Origin: a virus
Reading direction: 5' to 3' (one strand)
DNA length: 35,493 bases
UHGV virus genome: UHGV-0231292
Shown here: positions 4,821 to 11,590 of the stretch, piece after piece
Layout of the letters: every line of letters begins with the position of its first letter
Numbering within the stretch: position 1 is the first letter of the stretch
The notes under the pieces: model-generated
What the model saw: the letters and a program-made list of their open reading frames with translations, nothing else
What the model was told of the DNA's origin: nothing
The model's database searches: none
Position numbers and translations under genes: made by a program

Positions 4821-5210
4821 ATGATTGACGCTCATGACTTCACAAGATGGGTGCGCACACAGGACCCCCGTCTGGCTCCCGTTCTTCAGGGATTATTTGA
4901 TCTCTACATCCGTGGTCGTGACAACAGAGCACGCACCACAAAACCGGAGAATGCAGACACCCTTTATTTCACAGTAGACGACTGCTACCGCGTGGACTTC
5001 ACACCACACGGGCTGGCGTTGCACTGCCTGACACCACACGGCGAATCACTGCTGGCGTATTACGACTCCCCGGCCTCCATATTTGCGGCAATGCTGGCGC
5101 ATCGCACTGCTGGCGGGTGTGCCTCGCTGAGTGAATACTCCGCTGAATTTAACCGCCTTTCCGCCCTCTTCTCACAGGAGTGGCAGCGCGTGACGGGATA
5201 CCAGCCATGA
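4821..5210 (+). CDS. Hypothetical early protein immediately upstream of A
   Basis: 129 aa ORF; its stop overlaps the A start (ATGA). Confidence 0.45.
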   Translation: MIDAHDFTRWVRTQDPRLAPVLQGLFDLYIRGRDNRARTTKPENADTLYFTVDDCYRVDFTPHGLALHCLTPHGESLLAYYDSPASIFAAMLAHRTAGGCASLSEYSAEFNRLSALFSQEWQRVTGYQP

Positions 5211-8047
5211 GTGCGTTTGCATGGAGCTGGAATGAACCACGGCCAGCCATTGATCCGGCCAGATTTACGGAGCGCAGGCAGGAAACTGAAACCGACCTGC
5301 AACGCGCCATCCGTTACTACCTTGAGGCAAACAAAAGGGCACAGGAAGAACAGGAAGCGAAGGAAGAAGCCTTTTTCGCACAATCCACCGTGGGTAAAAA
5401 ACTCATGGCATCCCTTGAGGAAGCCGGACAGCGTGAAAAGCTGGCACAAAGCATCATCAGCAAGCGTCAGGCAACAGAACAAGACCCGGTGGCCCGTGCT
5501 TTTGCCACACTGAAGGTGCTTCCCGTTTATCTGCGTGAACCTCTGAGCCGCCACCTCTCTTTTCTGCGCAAGAAGCAGGAAGCCGATCGTCAGAAAGGCA
5601 AAAAGAGCTGGCAGGCTGAACGCTACGCGCGCGGAACCCTGCGCAAAATATTCGAACGTCTGGACCGCACCGACAGCCGCTGGCTGACACCGGGCTATCG
5701 CTCCCTTGCCGGACGCGAACGCCTGGACGATTTGCTTTACCTGCCGCAGCTCAACAAACACCAGATACAGACGCTGGCCACCATGACGGCGGCGATGTTC
5801 AGTGGCACTTTTGAAAAACTCTGCGATGGCTTTGGCGCGACCGATGGCGAGCTGACCATGGATGTAACGCTGAAGGCGTATCAGATGCTGGCCCGCATGG
5901 CGTTACACCTGCACGCTATGCCTCCACATTATGACGCTCTGACAACAGACAAAGACCGGAGGAATGAACCGGACACGGAGCTGCTGCCGGGCGCAATCCT
6001 TCGCCTGACCTGTGCGGAATGGTGGAAACGCAAACTGTGGCTGTTACGTTGCGAGTGGAGAGAAGAACAACTCCGCGCCGCCTGTCTGGTTTCCAGAAAA
6101 ACATCACCCTATCTGAGCCAGGACGCGTTAAGCGAGTTTCGCGCACAGCGCGAGAAAACACGCGATTTCCTGAAAAGTTTCATGCTGGAAAACGAAGACG
6201 GGTTCACGATTGATCTCGAGACAGTGTATTACGCGGGAGTAAGTAACCCGATTCACCGTAAGGCAGAAATGATGGCCACCATGAAGGGGCTGGAACTTCT
6301 GGCCGAAGCCCGTGGCGACAGAGCGGTGTTTCTGACTGTCACCTGCCCGTCAAAATACCACGCCACAACAGAGAACGGTCATCCGAATCCCAAATGGAAC
6401 GGGGCCACCATGCGCGACTCCAGCGATTACCTGGTTAACACGTTTTTTGCGGCGGTCCGCAAGAAACTGAACCGCGACGGCCTGCGCTGGTATGGCATCC
6501 GCACGGTGGAGCCTCACCATGACGGCACCGTGCACTGGCATATGATGGTCTTTGCTCATCCGGAAGAAATCGACACCATTGTGTCCCACACCCGCGATAT
6601 TGCCATTCAGGAAGACCGCCACGAGCTGGGCAATGATATTACTCCGCGCTTTAAGGTGGAGTATGTCGACGGCTCAAAAGGCACGCCAACCAGCTACATC
6701 GCCACCTACATCGGAAAGAACCTGGACAGCCGCGCCGTGGATGGCATCGACCCGAAAACGGGCAAGCCACGCGTTGACCACGAAACCGGAAAATCAATGG
6801 CCGAGAGCGTGGAACGCGCCATCGGCTGGGCACGCCTTCACCGGGTCCGCCAGTTCCAGTTCTTTGGCATCCCCTCCCGTCAGGTATGGCGTGAACTCCG
6901 CCGCCTTGCCAGCCAGATGGCACGCAACCCGGAAGGCCCACAACGGCTGAAGGATGATGCAATGGATGCGGTACTCGCTGCCGCTGATGCCGGGTGTTTT
7001 GCCACCTACATTGAGAAACAGGGCGGCGTACTTGTTCCACGCAAAGACTACCTGATTCGCACCGCCTACGACCTCGCAGATGAGCTGAACGATTACGGCG
7101 AACAGAGCGTACAGATTTACGGGATCTGGTCACCACTCATCGGGGAATCCTCCCGTGTGTGCACGCACCCGGATAACTGGAAGCTAGTAAGACGTAAACC
7201 GGAAGCGGAAGACAGCACCCGCGAAAATGGTTTTGACCTTCAGGGCGGCCCTGCCGCCCCTTGGACTCGTGGCAATAACTGTCCCCGTGTACAGGAAACG
7301 GACAACAACGGGACAGAACAGCCGGAAGAAAGGCCAGCACCGTGGCCGCAGCTTCCTGACGGCGTTGACGTGAATGAATGGATGCGCTCACTGAAACGGC
7401 ACGAACGCCGGGCGCTGATGCGTTCGCTGCGTGACAAACAGGCAAAAAACAGCAGTGATGAAATGCAGAACTGGACACAGAGCCGCAAACAGCCACGGCC
7501 TTTGCCTGATAACCACGAGTTACTCGCTAAAGAATGGCGGGAGTCTGCTGAATCTCTCGGCCTGCATATCGGTGAACAGCAGATGCAGCACCTGTTACGG
7601 GGCGGCAGTCTGTACGTTGACGGCAGCATCATTGCACCGCAGGGATTTGAAATTGTACGCAAACCAGATACCCGCCCGGACAGCCGAATCACGCAACTCT
7701 GGCAGCGCCTGAGCCGTAATCACGGCGTAAGCAGCACGGAGATCCGCCATAACCCGGTCGCCAGCTATCTGGAACAGCTGGGGGCATCAGACCCCGAAGC
7801 CGCCGCACACCTGGCATCCACACTTCAGCAGGACCAGAACACCATGAAAACCCCCGTTACCGTGCTTTCTGACATGCTGCGCGCCATCCGTGACGCAGTG
7901 CACGCACAGAGAATCAGTGAAACCACTGAACGCGCCCACCGCAAAGCAGACCTGCTGCGGGGTAGCCTGACCAGTGGAAACAAAAAACAGACAGAAACGG
8001 GACTCACAAATCCCGTAAATGAGCAAAAAACGTGCCGCGATATATGA
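5207..8047 (+). CDS. A: Rolling-circle replication initiator (P2 gpA-like HUH endonuclease)
   Basis: HUH motif VHWHMMVF and paired tyrosines SYIATYIGKN (Y-x3-Y) as in phiX174/P2 A-type initiators; start set to the ATG at 5207 rather than the upstream GTG. Confidence 0.85.
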   Translation: MSAFAWSWNEPRPAIDPARFTERRQETETDLQRAIRYYLEANKRAQEEQEAKEEAFFAQSTVGKKLMASLEEAGQREKLAQSIISKRQATEQDPVARAFATLKVLPVYLREPLSRHLSFLRKKQEADRQKGKKSWQAERYARGTLRKIFERLDRTDSRWLTPGYRSLAGRERLDDLLYLPQLNKHQIQTLATMTAAMFSGTFEKLCDGFGATDGELTMDVTLKAYQMLARMALHLHAMPPHYDALTTDKDRRNEPDTELLPGAILRLTCAEWWKRKLWLLRCEWREEQLRAACLVSRKTSPYLSQDALSEFRAQREKTRDFLKSFMLENEDGFTIDLETVYYAGVSNPIHRKAEMMATMKGLELLAEARGDRAVFLTVTCPSKYHATTENGHPNPKWNGATMRDSSDYLVNTFFAAVRKKLNRDGLRWYGIRTVEPHHDGTVHWHMMVFAHPEEIDTIVSHTRDIAIQEDRHELGNDITPRFKVEYVDGSKGTPTSYIATYIGKNLDSRAVDGIDPKTGKPRVDHETGKSMAESVERAIGWARLHRVRQFQFFGIPSRQVWRELRRLASQMARNPEGPQRLKDDAMDAVLAAADAGCFATYIEKQGGVLVPRKDYLIRTAYDLADELNDYGEQSVQIYGIWSPLIGESSRVCTHPDNWKLVRRKPEAEDSTRENGFDLQGGPAAPWTRGNNCPRVQETDNNGTEQPEERPAPWPQLPDGVDVNEWMRSLKRHERRALMRSLRDKQAKNSSDEMQNWTQSRKQPRPLPDNHELLAKEWRESAESLGLHIGEQQMQHLLRGGSLYVDGSIIAPQGFEIVRKPDTRPDSRITQLWQRLSRNHGVSSTEIRHNPVASYLEQLGASDPEAAAHLASTLQQDQNTMKTPVTVLSDMLRAIRDAVHAQRISETTERAHRKADLLRGSLTSGNKKQTETGLTNPVNEQKTCRDI

Positions 8048-8072
8048 AGCGCGCACAAAACAGGCAAAAGCG

Positions 8073-8086
8073 GGATTTAAAAATCC
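8073..8086. promoter_or_regulatory. Palindrome GGATTT-AA-AAATCC upstream of the parM-like gene (candidate operator/centromere)
   Basis: Inverted repeat read directly in the 76-bp A to parM-like spacer. Confidence 0.3.
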
Positions 8087-8123
8087 TGTAACCGATTAAT
8101 TAATCAACACAAGGAAAAGCGAC

Positions 8124-9083
8124 ATGAAAATTTGTATCGACGACGGCTCCACCAACATCAAGCTGGCATGGACTGAGAACGGCGAACGCCGCAACGCCAT
8201 CAGCCCGAACAGCTTCAAGTCGGAATGGTCTGCGCCGTTCGGTGGCACGCAGCCCGCGAACTACATGCTTGATGGCGTGCGCTATGGTTTTGATCCGGTC
8301 AGCGATCGCTTTGTCCAGACGACCGACACGCAATACCAGTACAGCGATGTGAATATAATTGCCATTCATCACGCGCTGGTCAAATCAGGCATCACACCAC
8401 AGGAAGTGGATGTGGTTGTCACCCTGCCACTGAGCGAGTATTTCGATACAAACGCACAGCCGGACATGGCCAACATCAACCGCAAAAAAGCGAACGTCAT
8501 GCGCCCGGTGGAGTACCAGAACGGCGAAGCATTCACTATCCGTAACGTACGGGTTATGCCTGAATCCATTCCGGCTGGCTTTAAGGCACTGGCTGACATG
8601 AGTCCGTTTGAATCCCTGCTGATTGTGGATTTGGGCGGAACCACTCTGGATGTGGCAAAGGTTCAGGGGCAACTGGCAGGTATCAGCCAGGTGTTTTGCG
8701 ATCCACACGTGGGCGTTTCTCTGATGGCCGATGCCGTACTGTCGGTGATGGCCACTAACGGTATGCGCACCAGTCACCACATCGCCAATACCATTATCGA
8801 ACATCGCCATGATGAAGCCTGGCTGCGCCAGCACATCCACAATGACGCGCATTACGCCAGCCTGATGGCGGTTATTCGTGAAAAGGAAGAAACACTGAAA
8901 CAACGCGTGATCCGCGCGCTGGCGGGTTTTTCGGGTTACGGGCGGGTGATGGTTGTCGGTGGAGGGGCGGAGATTGTGGCACCCGCTATCCGCGAAGCCT
9001 GCGGAGTTAATGCGACTTTCATCGCGGACGGGGTGCCACAGTTTGCTCTGGTTAATGGGCTGTACGCAATGGACAAGGAGTAA
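8124..9083 (+). CDS. parM: Actin-like segregation ATPase (ParM/StbA family)
   Basis: 319 aa; hallmark motifs IDDGSTNIKL, YSDVN, VMPESIPAG, DLGGTTLD, VVGGGAE, LVNGLY match ParM/StbA as recalled. Confidence 0.75.
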   Translation: MKICIDDGSTNIKLAWTENGERRNAISPNSFKSEWSAPFGGTQPANYMLDGVRYGFDPVSDRFVQTTDTQYQYSDVNIIAIHHALVKSGITPQEVDVVVTLPLSEYFDTNAQPDMANINRKKANVMRPVEYQNGEAFTIRNVRVMPESIPAGFKALADMSPFESLLIVDLGGTTLDVAKVQGQLAGISQVFCDPHVGVSLMADAVLSVMATNGMRTSHHIANTIIEHRHDEAWLRQHIHNDAHYASLMAVIREKEETLKQRVIRALAGFSGYGRVMVVGGGAEIVAPAIREACGVNATFIADGVPQFALVNGLYAMDKE

Positions 9084-9087
9084 ACCA

Positions 9088-9399
9088 ATGACGACTCCAA
9101 CCAGACGGATAAGTTTCTATCTGAAGCCCACCGCCGTCAAGAACGAAGGAGAAGCATGCGCCTGGCTGGACAGCCTTACACCAGAAGCCCGCAAAAGCGG
9201 CCAACGCGTGGCTTTTCTGGCCGGGCTGGCACTTCTGAAAATGAATCCGGCAGAGGCTTATCGACTGGCTGCATGGGCTGGTGATGAAGCGTTATCAGTG
9301 ACACAAACCAGGACAGAACGCCCCGCATCACAGCCAGTATCAACCGCACAGATAACCAGTCAGATGGCCGGAAATATCCGGGCGTTATTTCCTGAATAA
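9088..9399 (+). CDS. parR: ParR/StbB-like DNA-binding adaptor
   Basis: 104 aa from the in-frame ATG directly after the parM-like stop; RRISFYLKP...LDSLTPEARKSGQRVAFLAGLALLKMNP...LFPE parallels plasmid R1 ParR as recalled. Confidence 0.55.
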   Translation: MTTPTRRISFYLKPTAVKNEGEACAWLDSLTPEARKSGQRVAFLAGLALLKMNPAEAYRLAAWAGDEALSVTQTRTERPASQPVSTAQITSQMAGNIRALFPE

Positions 9400-9462
9400 C
9401 ACAACATCAGGGCGAGTTCGCCCTGCTCTCCACCTCAGAACATAAACAAGGAGAACGACTTA

Positions 9463-10053
9463 ATGAGCGAAATCAACTATCAGGCATTACGTGAACGTTA
9501 TTCACCTGTGCCAGTACCGAAATGCCCTATTTGCGGCGAGGAAATGTCAATTCAGCGAATATCTGGAGCACAGGTTGTTTATGCCTGCTCCGGTTATGGT
9601 GATGATGGAGATTTCAAAATTGGCCGAACTCTTGCCGACGAACATTATGAAAAATCACGCGTAACAGTGTTGGATGTCGGGGATCCTGAAGTATTGGCGC
9701 TACTTGATTGGCTGGAAACCAAAGACAACCGAATCGCTGAACTGGAAAAAATCGCCACTGACTATGCACTTAAATTCCAGAAAGCACAGGACGCATTAAA
9801 GTATGCCGCTTTGCTGCATAGCAGGACGGCGCAACAAACAAATAATTTTGCAGTATCGCTTCCGGACATAAGCGAATATTTCATTAATGACGTATTTCAG
9901 CCCTTGCGATACGAGCGGGATGTTGAAAGAGCCATCATAAAGGCTGGCGGAAAAGCATTGTGGCAGGAGAAACACGAGGACAGAACGCATCAGTCCTGCG
10001 ATGTAAATCGTGGATGGTTTAGCCCACTGACGACAGATAAAAATAACACCTGA
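9463..10053 (+). CDS. Hypothetical protein with N-terminal Cys-rich (zinc-ribbon-like) segment and central helical region
   Basis: 196 aa; CPICGEE...YACSGYGDDGD then coiled-coil-like LALLDWLETKDNRIAELEKIATDYALKFQKAQDAL; strong RBS AAGGAGAA. Confidence 0.5.
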   Translation: MSEINYQALRERYSPVPVPKCPICGEEMSIQRISGAQVVYACSGYGDDGDFKIGRTLADEHYEKSRVTVLDVGDPEVLALLDWLETKDNRIAELEKIATDYALKFQKAQDALKYAALLHSRTAQQTNNFAVSLPDISEYFINDVFQPLRYERDVERAIIKAGGKALWQEKHEDRTHQSCDVNRGWFSPLTTDKNNT

Positions 10054-10092
10054 TCCCCCTCAAACCAGGGCGATAATCGCGCATCGCCCTGC

Positions 10093-10119
10093 TGCACAAT
10101 AGTGCACAAGTTTGCACAA
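10093..10119. repeat. Three direct TGCACAA repeats at exact 10-bp phasing (candidate protein-binding array near cos)
   Basis: cTGCACAAtagTGCACAAgttTGCACAAt read directly; a fourth TGCACAA lies at about 10185. Confidence 0.5.
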
Positions 10120-10162
10120 TTTTTTTGAACGACTTTTTACCCTTCCGGCCCGCATGGCGGCT

Positions 10163-10543: not shown

Positions 10544-11590
10544 TCAGGATGTGGGCTGGGTGTCTAACAGTGCGTAAGGGTTAAAGCGGATCACCTCTTC
10601 GCCAAGCCAGTCATTGATGTGCTTCATGGCCTCCATGACAGGCATCAGCTCGTTAATTGCGTAAACCCGCGCGGCCTTCTCCACATCACCAAACGCACTT
10701 TTTTCGCCCGGCATCGCCCCCATCAGTTGCGGCGGAACGCGGTGCGCAGCCAGCACATCATCACGGGATGCCGCCTTAACATTCATGAACTCATCTTTTG
10801 CGGTGATCTGCTGGAACGGCAAAATTTGCACCCCCTCTTTGCCCCCGTTGGGCGCATGAATGAGCACGTTTTTAAATGCACCACCACCACGCGCACCCTG
10901 TAACGTTTCTTTCAGGGAGTCCATGCTTTCGCGGTTTACCTGCGCTGCACCGATGTAGATGATGCACCCGGCGTGGGATCCGTTGTCGTAGTACAGTTTT
11001 CTGAACATGTCCGCCGAATGAGAAAGGCTGGCCGAGAGTAATGCGCCAAGATATTCCGGCATGCCGTAGATTTCCTGGTTAATATCCGGATTCATCAGGT
11101 GGCACACTTTGCCAGGGCGAAACTGGAACGCGTCCTTGCCATCCTGCACATACCACCATGATTCAAGATCGCTTCCGCGTCGCATGTATTTCGCCAGGGC
11201 GTGCCGTAATTTAAGCGGTTCGCCGAGCATATTGCTACGAAGCTCAAGGAATGCGTTACCGAACACAAACCAGTCCAGCGCCAGCGCCGAGAAATCCTGC
11301 CGGGAAAACAGCGGGTGCGGGATGTAGCAACCGAGTAATACATTGCGCTTAAAGTAAAGCGCAGACTGATGCCAGGACGTTTGCCGGGCAGCTCTTGCCA
11401 GACCGTACCAGTCCACCGGGGTTTCATACCACCGCCCGTTATCAGCACAGTACATATTATCCAGCAGGTCATGCCCGGTCAGGCGATAAGGACCATCAAA
11501 TGTGAATGCACTGAGCGATGATTCTTTCCTGAGCGCATCAGCGAGATCAATGCGTGAACTCATGCGCACTTTTTTATTTTTTCTGCTCAT
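10544..11590 (-). CDS. Q: Portal protein (P2 gpQ-like)
   Basis: 348 aa; size, position and N-terminal pattern (basic N-terminus then FTFDGP...W) match P2 Q; cotranscribed with P. Confidence 0.9.
   Translation of the reverse strand: MSRKNKKVRMSSRIDLADALRKESSLSAFTFDGPYRLTGHDLLDNMYCADNGRWYETPVDWYGLARAARQTSWHQSALYFKRNVLLGCYIPHPLFSRQDFSALALDWFVFGNAFLELRSNMLGEPLKLRHALAKYMRRGSDLESWWYVQDGKDAFQFRPGKVCHLMNPDINQEIYGMPEYLGALLSASLSHSADMFRKLYYDNGSHAGCIIYIGAAQVNRESMDSLKETLQGARGGGAFKNVLIHAPNGGKEGVQILPFQQITAKDEFMNVKAASRDDVLAAHRVPPQLMGAMPGEKSAFGDVEKAARVYAINELMPVMEAMKHINDWLGEEVIRFNPYALLDTQPTS

Follow-up and report, generated by a model that had tools for sequence, protein, structure and literature searches.

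An Ead/Ea22-like gene as the single cargo of the variable gpA–gpQ slot in a P88-like prophage

The window analysed here, i.e. the whole 35,493-nt stretch of the viral genome UHGV-0231292, is a P2-family prophage of the P88-like type; its nearest named phages are P88 and its relatives, which form the genus Xuanwuvirus in the family Peduoviridae. The subject of this work is a single gene of that prophage, an open reading frame (ORF) of 196 codons with an ATG start on the + strand, present at 9463–10053 exactly as described in an initial annotation made from the letters alone. This gene alone makes up the cargo of a variable slot located between the partition genes parMR and the cos-proximal flank, and its product is almost certainly a member of the Ead/Ea22-like protein family, which makes it an already annotated and already catalogued family member.

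The gene and the slot it fills

The gene, its translation start and its surroundings are the following.

9463–10053, + strand: coding sequence of the 196-aa Ead/Ea22-like family protein, the same as WP_001289969.1
9448–9453, + strand: Shine-Dalgarno sequence AAGGAG, 9 nt before the ATG, read directly in the sequence
9452–10092, + strand: cargo segment with one gene only, differing between sister P88-like phages (blastn, GC content)
5180–8047, + strand: gene A, gpA-type replication endonuclease (Phage_GPA, E = 9e-130)
8124–9083, + strand: parM, actin-like segregation ATPase
9088–9399, + strand: parR/StbB-like gene (Plasmid_stab_B)
10544–11590, − strand: portal gene Q, downstream of the Ead/Ea22 gene

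Many E. coli chromosomes have the 591-bp gene with 100% DNA identity; among the 5426 complete E. coli genomes, 134 contain 80% or more of it. The RefSeq gene of 100% DNA identity carries the name "ead/Ea22-like family protein" (WP_001289969.1), and a protein of the Xuanwuvirus phage P884B11 is 99% identical to the 196-aa product. The pattern of substitutions was assessed by comparison with the 90%-identical gene of E. albertii and with a more distant gene of E. marmotae. Over codons 1–168 the rate of non-synonymous substitution (dN) lies well below the synonymous one (dS), e.g. 0.029 versus 0.104 for codons 1–75, while over codons 169–196 the two are about equal (0.20 and 0.22). Since the copies are conserved across genomes and dN is below dS over codons 1–168, the ORF is a real coding gene and not a chance reading frame, and residues 1–168 of its product are under purifying selection.

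The slot was delimited by blastn comparison of the window with five P88-like phages (P88, PhiR44_2, Chuche, Shae_phiSM and Entero_P88), among which the A–parM–parR block is about 96% identical. On the left the conserved flank extends to 9451 in the phages with + strand cargo, to 9399–9402 in two of the three with − strand cargo, and to 9233 in the third of these, Entero_P88. On the right the restart falls at 10047 in Chuche and at 10092/10093 in the other four phages; the point of restart is a triple TGCACAA repeat followed by seven T residues (T7). Because flank identity stops and restarts at these boundaries, the segment 9452–10092 is regarded as the cargo. Its GC content is 45.5% (42% at third codon positions, GC3), against 54–57% (GC3 of 49–65%) in the neighbouring genes. 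In each of the five sister phages this cargo is exchanged for other genes.

This slot corresponds to the gpA–gpQ hotspot described in P2-like phages by Rousset et al. 2022 (PMC9122126), where a partition system is found in about one quarter of P2-like phages and where this exact accession is catalogued (Table S5). The placement of the gene at the position of the P2 tin/old-type exclusion genes, between gene A and the portal gene Q, is thus borne out by this hotspot and by the locus comparison with the five P88-like phages; the initial annotation had proposed such a comparison among P2-like prophages. Left unmentioned there were parM and the parR/StbB-like gene, which intervene between A and the Ead/Ea22 gene. 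Downstream the large terminase gene P, like Q, lies on the − strand. The same gene order surrounds an identical copy located next to yecA and tyrP in a prophage of E. coli O26:H11 str. 11368.

The closest counterparts of the gene in the sister phages are gp19 and gp20 of P88, which share with it the slot, the strand, the upstream leader and the ribosome-binding site (AAGGGG in front of gp19). The first of them combines a coiled coil with a ClpX-type C4 zinc finger (zf-C4_ClpX); the second is a 112-aa protein, the C-terminus of which matches the C-terminal domain of other Ead/Ea22 proteins, namely P0047 (75% identity) and P0116 (80%). They differ from our protein in that there is no sequence similarity to it and that the zinc module and the Ea22-type C-terminal domain reside on separate proteins. 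The PhiR44_2 slot holds a longer array including a weakly Mom-like protein. In Chuche a gene on the − strand (L003, 2233–3039) encodes a 268-aa DUF3800 protein that matches the PADLOC candidate family PDC-M04A at E = 2.6e-35, so that candidate defence genes are indeed among the contents of this slot in sister phages. In Shae_phiSM and Entero_P88 the slot encodes a DUF4760 protein, also on the − strand, and in Entero_P88 this is adjoined by a weak Csx27-like membrane protein on the same strand.

Such neighbours raise the question whether the gene is a functional counterpart of P2 tin/old that shields the lysogen from other phages. Several defence systems have been validated at the hotspot by Rousset et al. 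(PMC9122126), the candidate defence genes of the sister phages occupy the same slot and the base composition of the gene is foreign. Like tin and old, it is an accessory gene between A and cos/Q that varies among relatives (PMC9122126). Nevertheless, no sequence or domain kinship connects the protein with Tin or Old: it has no ABC-ATPase or TOPRIM match, no PADLOC family matches it at E ≤ 1, and no nuclease or other enzymatic domain was found. The Ead_Ea22 arrangement is not in the table of systems evaluated for defence in PMC9122126. Moreover, the candidate defence cargoes of the sister phages are on the opposite strand and have their own junctions, whereas this gene points the same way as the early genes, lacks a recognisable promoter of its own and, in difference to tin and old, is probably not transcribed independently. 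Finally, the characterised relatives of the protein act on the development of the phage itself. An exclusion or defence function is therefore quite unlikely in our opinion.

Its position directly downstream of parR, in the same orientation and probably in the same transcript, might also suggest an accessory component of the ParM/ParR partition system. Against this stands the independent distribution of the gene and parMR. The 90%-identical E. albertii copy is located in a P2-like prophage that has no parMR, so an obligatory link to partition is ruled out; P88 and other sister phages possess parMR without this gene; and the modules of the protein are found in lambdoid phages without partition genes close by. 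These distributions largely refute the partition role, which we rejected as extremely improbable.

Family membership and modular build of the protein

The Pfam family PF13935 (Ead_Ea22) matches residues 2–140 of the protein with E = 1.1e-31 (110.7 bits against a cut-off of 27), spanning positions 1–134 of the 139 positions of the model. PHROG 368 (function not assigned) matches at E = 8e-30. At E ≤ 0.001 a homologue search yielded 533 proteins; each of the 120 homologues listed has the Ead_Ea22 domain. The resemblance to Ead/Ea22-like prophage proteins, put forward initially as a mere possibility, is thereby established by the Pfam match and by the RefSeq name. Beyond this family there was no Pfam match at the curated cut-off and no meaningful NCBIfam match; a sequence search of PDB gave nothing relevant (the top entry was a generic CxxC match, E = 4.1), and the full-length model found no match in PDB at E ≤ 0.001 by Foldseek. 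Homology to a structural or replication protein, which the initial annotation had named as a refutation, was looked for and none was found, and with no enzymatic or defence domain detected the function is indeed not readily recognisable, as had been said of it.

Structure prediction by AlphaFold2, combined with alignments, revealed that the protein is a mosaic of a small beta-rich N-terminal domain, a long helix, a compact C-terminal domain and a disordered tail, preceded by a short leader. The segments are as follows.

9463–9495, + strand: leader MSEINYQALRE, codons 1–11, the left recombination joint (identity with lambda Ea22, breakpoint in the allele P0020)
9496–9687, + strand: swappable N module, codons 12–75, CPIC(21–24)...C42...H61 (alignments, AlphaFold2)
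9688–9828, + strand: long helix/coiled coil of about 47 residues, codons 76–122, with the motifs LLDxLE and RIAELEK (AlphaFold2, heptads)
9829–9966, + strand: C-terminal mini-domain, codons 123–168 (recurrence in HMMER searches, AlphaFold2)
9967–10050, + strand: tail, codons 169–196, disordered and unconstrained (predicted local confidence, pLDDT, below 50; dN close to dS)

The leader is common to nearly all family members, fits the family pattern M-S-x-I-(N/D)-x-Q-A-L-R-E and is kept across alternative N modules. Within it the alignments show little or no variation at M1, S2, I4, Y6 and L9, and E11 is invariant in an alignment of 20 sequences. It is also the site, together with the coiled-coil motifs LLDE and RIAxLE, to which the likeness to lambda Ea22 is confined (SEINxQALRE, 9 of 10 residues identical). 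The two proteins, as well as Ea22 of Phi24B, share PF13935, the leader and the general plan, in which a coiled coil is set between an N region and a C-terminal domain that both vary. In other respects they differ. Sequence and fold searches against PDB gave no match to the solved C-terminal domain of lambda Ea22, and the end domains are unrelated. The lambda gene belongs to the exo–xis region driven by pL, while ours lies between parMR and cos/Q in the P2-type gpA–gpQ slot and not in a lambdoid early-left (exo–xis/ea) region. The K/R-G-E tripeptide that ends the lambdoid Ea22 proteins compared in PMC7093339 is replaced here by the ending ...TTDKNNT. We found this tripeptide in lambda Ea22 and also in many of the homologues whose C-terminal domain is a different one; it characterises the lambdoid gene context and lies outside the Pfam definition. 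The namesake of the family, EaD of P22, is likewise an early-left accessory gene product, and the leader and coiled-coil motifs can be recognised in it by eye, but the BLASTP similarity is not significant (E = 0.43, out of register) and EaD has no cysteine module.

The N module is predicted to consist of beta-hairpins and a helix (pLDDT about 70), with strands at 29–34 and 37–41. C21, C24 and C42 are invariant in all 68 distinct homologues that have the module, and H61 and D48 are each kept in 67 of them. The Cys-rich N-terminus noted in the initial annotation is therefore real, with three cysteines and not four. The zinc ribbon proposed there is supported only in part: one CxxC knuckle (C21-x2-C24) and the single C42 are present, while a second CxxC knuckle is not. 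The zinc-ribbon matches in Pfam were all below the cut-offs, and the best zinc ribbon in Foldseek, that of topoisomerase I (4rul_A), gave an insignificant alignment of 28 columns (rmsd 2.0 Å, E = 1.7). The candidate fourth zinc ligands are D47, D48 or H61. A diverged homologue, P0033, has an extra cysteine four residues after C42 (C42-x4-C), which suggests a descent of the module from a four-cysteine site. Because of the missing second knuckle and the extra cysteine of P0033, the module looks like a zinc ribbon in which the fourth cysteine has been lost or replaced. When the N module alone was used to look for homologues, only 12 candidates were obtained, all of them close relatives, so that this search gave no distant test of ligand conservation.

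The helical middle was recognised correctly from the beginning: a single long helix is predicted at residues 75–122, where L80, L81 and L94 are invariant and the heptad count peaks in one register. The C-terminal mini-domain is represented by the motif FxVxLP..EYFIxxVFQPLRYERDxERAxxxAGG (approximately residues 125–165, about 40 residues) with 15 invariant positions. Modelled alone it is compact, with a core pLDDT of 86–95 as means over 10-residue blocks. Among 1.84 billion representative proteins searched exhaustively with HMMER, only 22 matched it, one of which, the 874-aa protein P0140, was judged spurious. The mini-domain is always C-terminal and is joined to unrelated N-termini, among them Ead/Ea22 scaffolds and that of a protein with a borderline DUF551 match. 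It is present, too, in an ORF located just before the nin genes of P22-like Salmonella phages. No Pfam family corresponds to it, and Foldseek found no significant match in PDB or BFVD. It is an undescribed and widely reused building block. The tail that follows is missing from the homologues P0007, P0010 and P0121. The protein as a whole is acidic, with an isoelectric point of 5.2, which argues against a DNA binder.

These data bear on the view that the gene is a largely neutral passenger, i.e. a mosaic gene that recombination between early regions has carried along and that hardly affects fitness. In lambda the family is dispensable, the gene is missing from most P88-like prophages (about 134 genomes against 1285 with parM–parR matches, 661 of them over most of the probe) and the tail codons 169–196 evolve neutrally. 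The remainder of the protein speaks otherwise: dN is clearly below dS over codons 1–168, the three cysteines are invariant and H61 is nearly so, the 15 core positions of the mini-domain are kept across unrelated contexts, and intact copies exist in more than 100 genomes. We consider neutrality very unlikely.

The end modules are shuffled extensively. Among the best 120 homologues this N module was found in 85, this C-terminal domain in 45, and both together in 10; the C-terminal domain is paired with at least three other N modules. Single-linkage clustering over-merged the alternative C-terminal parts via the coiled-coil segments that they share, and the number of different C-terminal domains could not be derived reliably from it. 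The allele P0020 (locus L007), which occupies the same slot in other P88-like prophages, has an unrelated N module, while its DNA is about 97% identical to ours on both sides of that module. The breakpoints lie right after codon 11 and at about codon 80, which indicates that the leader and the start of the coiled coil act as recombination joints. With other C-terminal domains this N module is found in lambdoid early regions and on plasmids of about 100 kb; a gene of phage D6 was matched in the search of phage proteins, and this suggests that the plasmids are D6-type phage-plasmids. A + strand array (ClpX zinc-finger protein, a protein of about 170 aa, Ead/Ea22) ends with the gene in E. albertii and E. 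marmotae, where its start codon overlaps the preceding stop. A 26.8-kb Shigella 'plasmid' with the gene was considered as a possible episomal phage and rejected, as it is a linear prophage fragment.

The end modules are recombined in many combinations on a scaffold that stays constant, and the N module has also been swapped in situ. Such a pattern is to be expected under an arms race, and it might be explained by an anti-defence factor in which the coiled coil displays rapidly exchanged binding modules that inhibit immune proteins of the host or of competitors early in infection. The N module and the C-terminal mini-domain turn up again in early accessory regions of other elements, namely lambdoid phages, P22-like phages and D6-like phage-plasmids. 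A 2026 preprint (10.64898/2026.07.10.737580) reports that some phages have the anti-OLD protein Oad2 fused to an EaD/Ea22 protein, and our protein is acidic and probably protein-binding. On the other hand, none of the Ead/Ea22 proteins is itself known to inhibit a defence system, and BLASTP detected no similarity to P22 EaE, a relative of Oad2; for the same reason we rejected a kinship of the C-terminal domain with Oad2 and EaE. On balance an anti-defence role appears unlikely. A broader formulation is that Ead/Ea22 proteins are general modular display scaffolds with swappable end domains employed in conflicts with immune systems or rival phages, and that in the present case the three-cysteine N module and the YFIxxVFQPLRYERD mini-domain inhibit or trigger a specific defence or competitor protein; this, too, we would regard as improbable.

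Transcription and possible function

Three putative RNA structures flank the gene.

9408–9425, + strand: stable hairpin CAGGGCGAGTTCGCCCTG after the parR stop codon (−13 kcal/mol, z = −2.9; no U-run)
10066–10091, + strand: hairpin CAGGGCGAT-AATCGCGC-ATCGCCCTG just after the stop codon of the gene (−15.6 kcal/mol, z = −4.0; no U-run)
10102–10126, + strand: weak hairpin with T7 inside the three TGCACAA repeats, the first terminator-like site downstream

The gene has the orientation of gene A and parMR, and scans with the standard and relaxed consensus, which cannot exclude a promoter, found no sigma-70-like promoter upstream of it on the + strand. The first hairpin sits in the flank shared with P88, similar ones are found in P88 and PhiR44_2, and it was not scored as a + strand terminator. 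The 3' arm of the second hairpin repeats 10 nt of the first: TCGCCCTGCT is present at 9418–9427 and at 10084–10093 (direct repeat D19). The fold of the third is not significant when taken alone (−6.1 kcal/mol, z = −1.1); the site, which each of the five sister phages has kept, might mark where the + strand transcription unit ends. The 5' leader with the ribosome-binding site is common with the unrelated + strand cargo of P88. From this anatomy (orientation, no promoter of its own, hairpins without a U-run, shared leader) we infer co-transcription with A and parMR, in which the gene would be the distal one. No RNA family of Rfam was found anywhere in the window.

As a separate observation, the three TGCACAA repeats with T7 (10093–10126) open the conserved cos-proximal flank in all the P88-like phages compared; they could be a protein-binding site involved in packaging or regulation, a terminator, or both.

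Experimental knowledge of the Ead/Ea22 family comes only from lambda and Phi24B. In lambda ea22 is an early, non-essential gene (PMC10695390), an accessory status that our gene resembles. The deletion of ea22 from lambda or Phi24B results in shorter latency, a bigger burst and lower host survival; lysogeny is lowered in lambda, while in Phi24B the effect varies with the multiplicity of infection (PMC7093339). The full-length lambda protein forms a tetramer and its C-terminal domain a dimer (PMC10834534).

By analogy with these data, the explanation that we prefer, albeit tentatively and without assigning it a high degree of confidence, is that the sole cargo of the slot is an Ead/Ea22-like accessory protein that damps lytic development as lambda Ea22 does. 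The gene would be transcribed last in the A/parMR unit; its product would form a coiled-coil oligomer, the end domains of which would bind a host or phage protein, and as a consequence lytic development would be damped, with longer latency, a smaller burst and more survivors and lysogens. The protein would be neither an enzyme nor an exclusion nuclease like Old. The mechanistic part of this scheme, that of an acidic oligomeric adaptor which binds proteins and thereby damps the lytic cycle, is more doubtful than the explanation as a whole and is viewed by us as a possibility only, because the scaffold, and not the end domains, is what our protein has in common with the studied Ea22 proteins.

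Several points weigh against the damping explanation. As both end domains are unrelated to those of lambda Ea22 and P22 EaD, the function may not transfer from these relatives at all. The gene lies in a P2-type defence hotspot and not in a lambdoid exo–xis region, and the terminal K/R-G-E motif is absent. Two-hybrid screens with lambda Ea22 have identified no partner (PMC10834534). The absence of a promoter is a result of consensus scans only. The parMR promoter could itself be active in the lysogen, and read-through from a parMR promoter into the gene is possible.

As a discovery the gene carries little weight: RefSeq already has a name for the protein, and its occurrence at the P2 hotspot is on record. 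It is of value as a clean single-gene example for working out the function of the Ead/Ea22 family, which is very common in the prophages of E. coli and Salmonella, Stx phages included. The natural swap of the N module between near-identical alleles in the same slot provides a ready-made test of which module sets the specificity. The new points are modest: the exact boundaries of the cargo, the N-module swap in situ and the undescribed C-terminal mini-domain.

Further features of the prophage

The parM and parR genes form a complete StbA/StbB-type plasmid partition cassette (8124–9399) inside an integrated P2-family prophage. A probe made of the 3' end of parM together with parR had a match in 1285 of the 5426 complete E. 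coli genomes, in 661 of them over most of the probe length; these matches are located at 1424 chromosomal places versus 2 on plasmids. Possible maintenance as a plasmid was suggested by Rousset et al. (PMC9122126). Just upstream of parM and overlapping the 3' end of gene A there is a direct repeat of 38 nt (7981–8018 and 8054–8091, 79% identical), each copy of which contains the palindrome ACGGGAyT...AAATCCyGT; it could be a ParR-binding centromere (parC) together with the promoter region of parMR.

The product of gene A is unusually long, with 955 aa from the listed GTG start (the RefSeq coding sequence is of 2841 bp). Phage_GPA covers its residues 194–518 only, and a C-terminal extension of about 430 residues has no match in Pfam.

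A second, small insertion point lies at 10547–10569, directly after the portal stop codon, and is unfilled in this window. In PhiR44_2, Entero_P88 and the locus L009 it is occupied by an ORF of 174 aa without Pfam or PADLOC matches. This ORF starts with MVINYKQLREKREQ and is identical in PhiR44_2 and Entero_P88 (the L009 copy was not compared).

A protein of about 110 aa with an N-terminal helical region and a ClpX-type C4 zinc finger (PF06689, E = 8e-18) recurs in the gpA–gpQ slot, often two genes upstream of an Ead/Ea22 gene. It was located at the following positions.

L002, 2064–2396: ClpX-type zinc-finger protein, P88 gp19
L014, 3084–3419: ClpX-type zinc-finger protein
L015, 3098–3430: ClpX-type zinc-finger protein

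This protein could be a mimic of the ClpX N-domain or a competitor with it.

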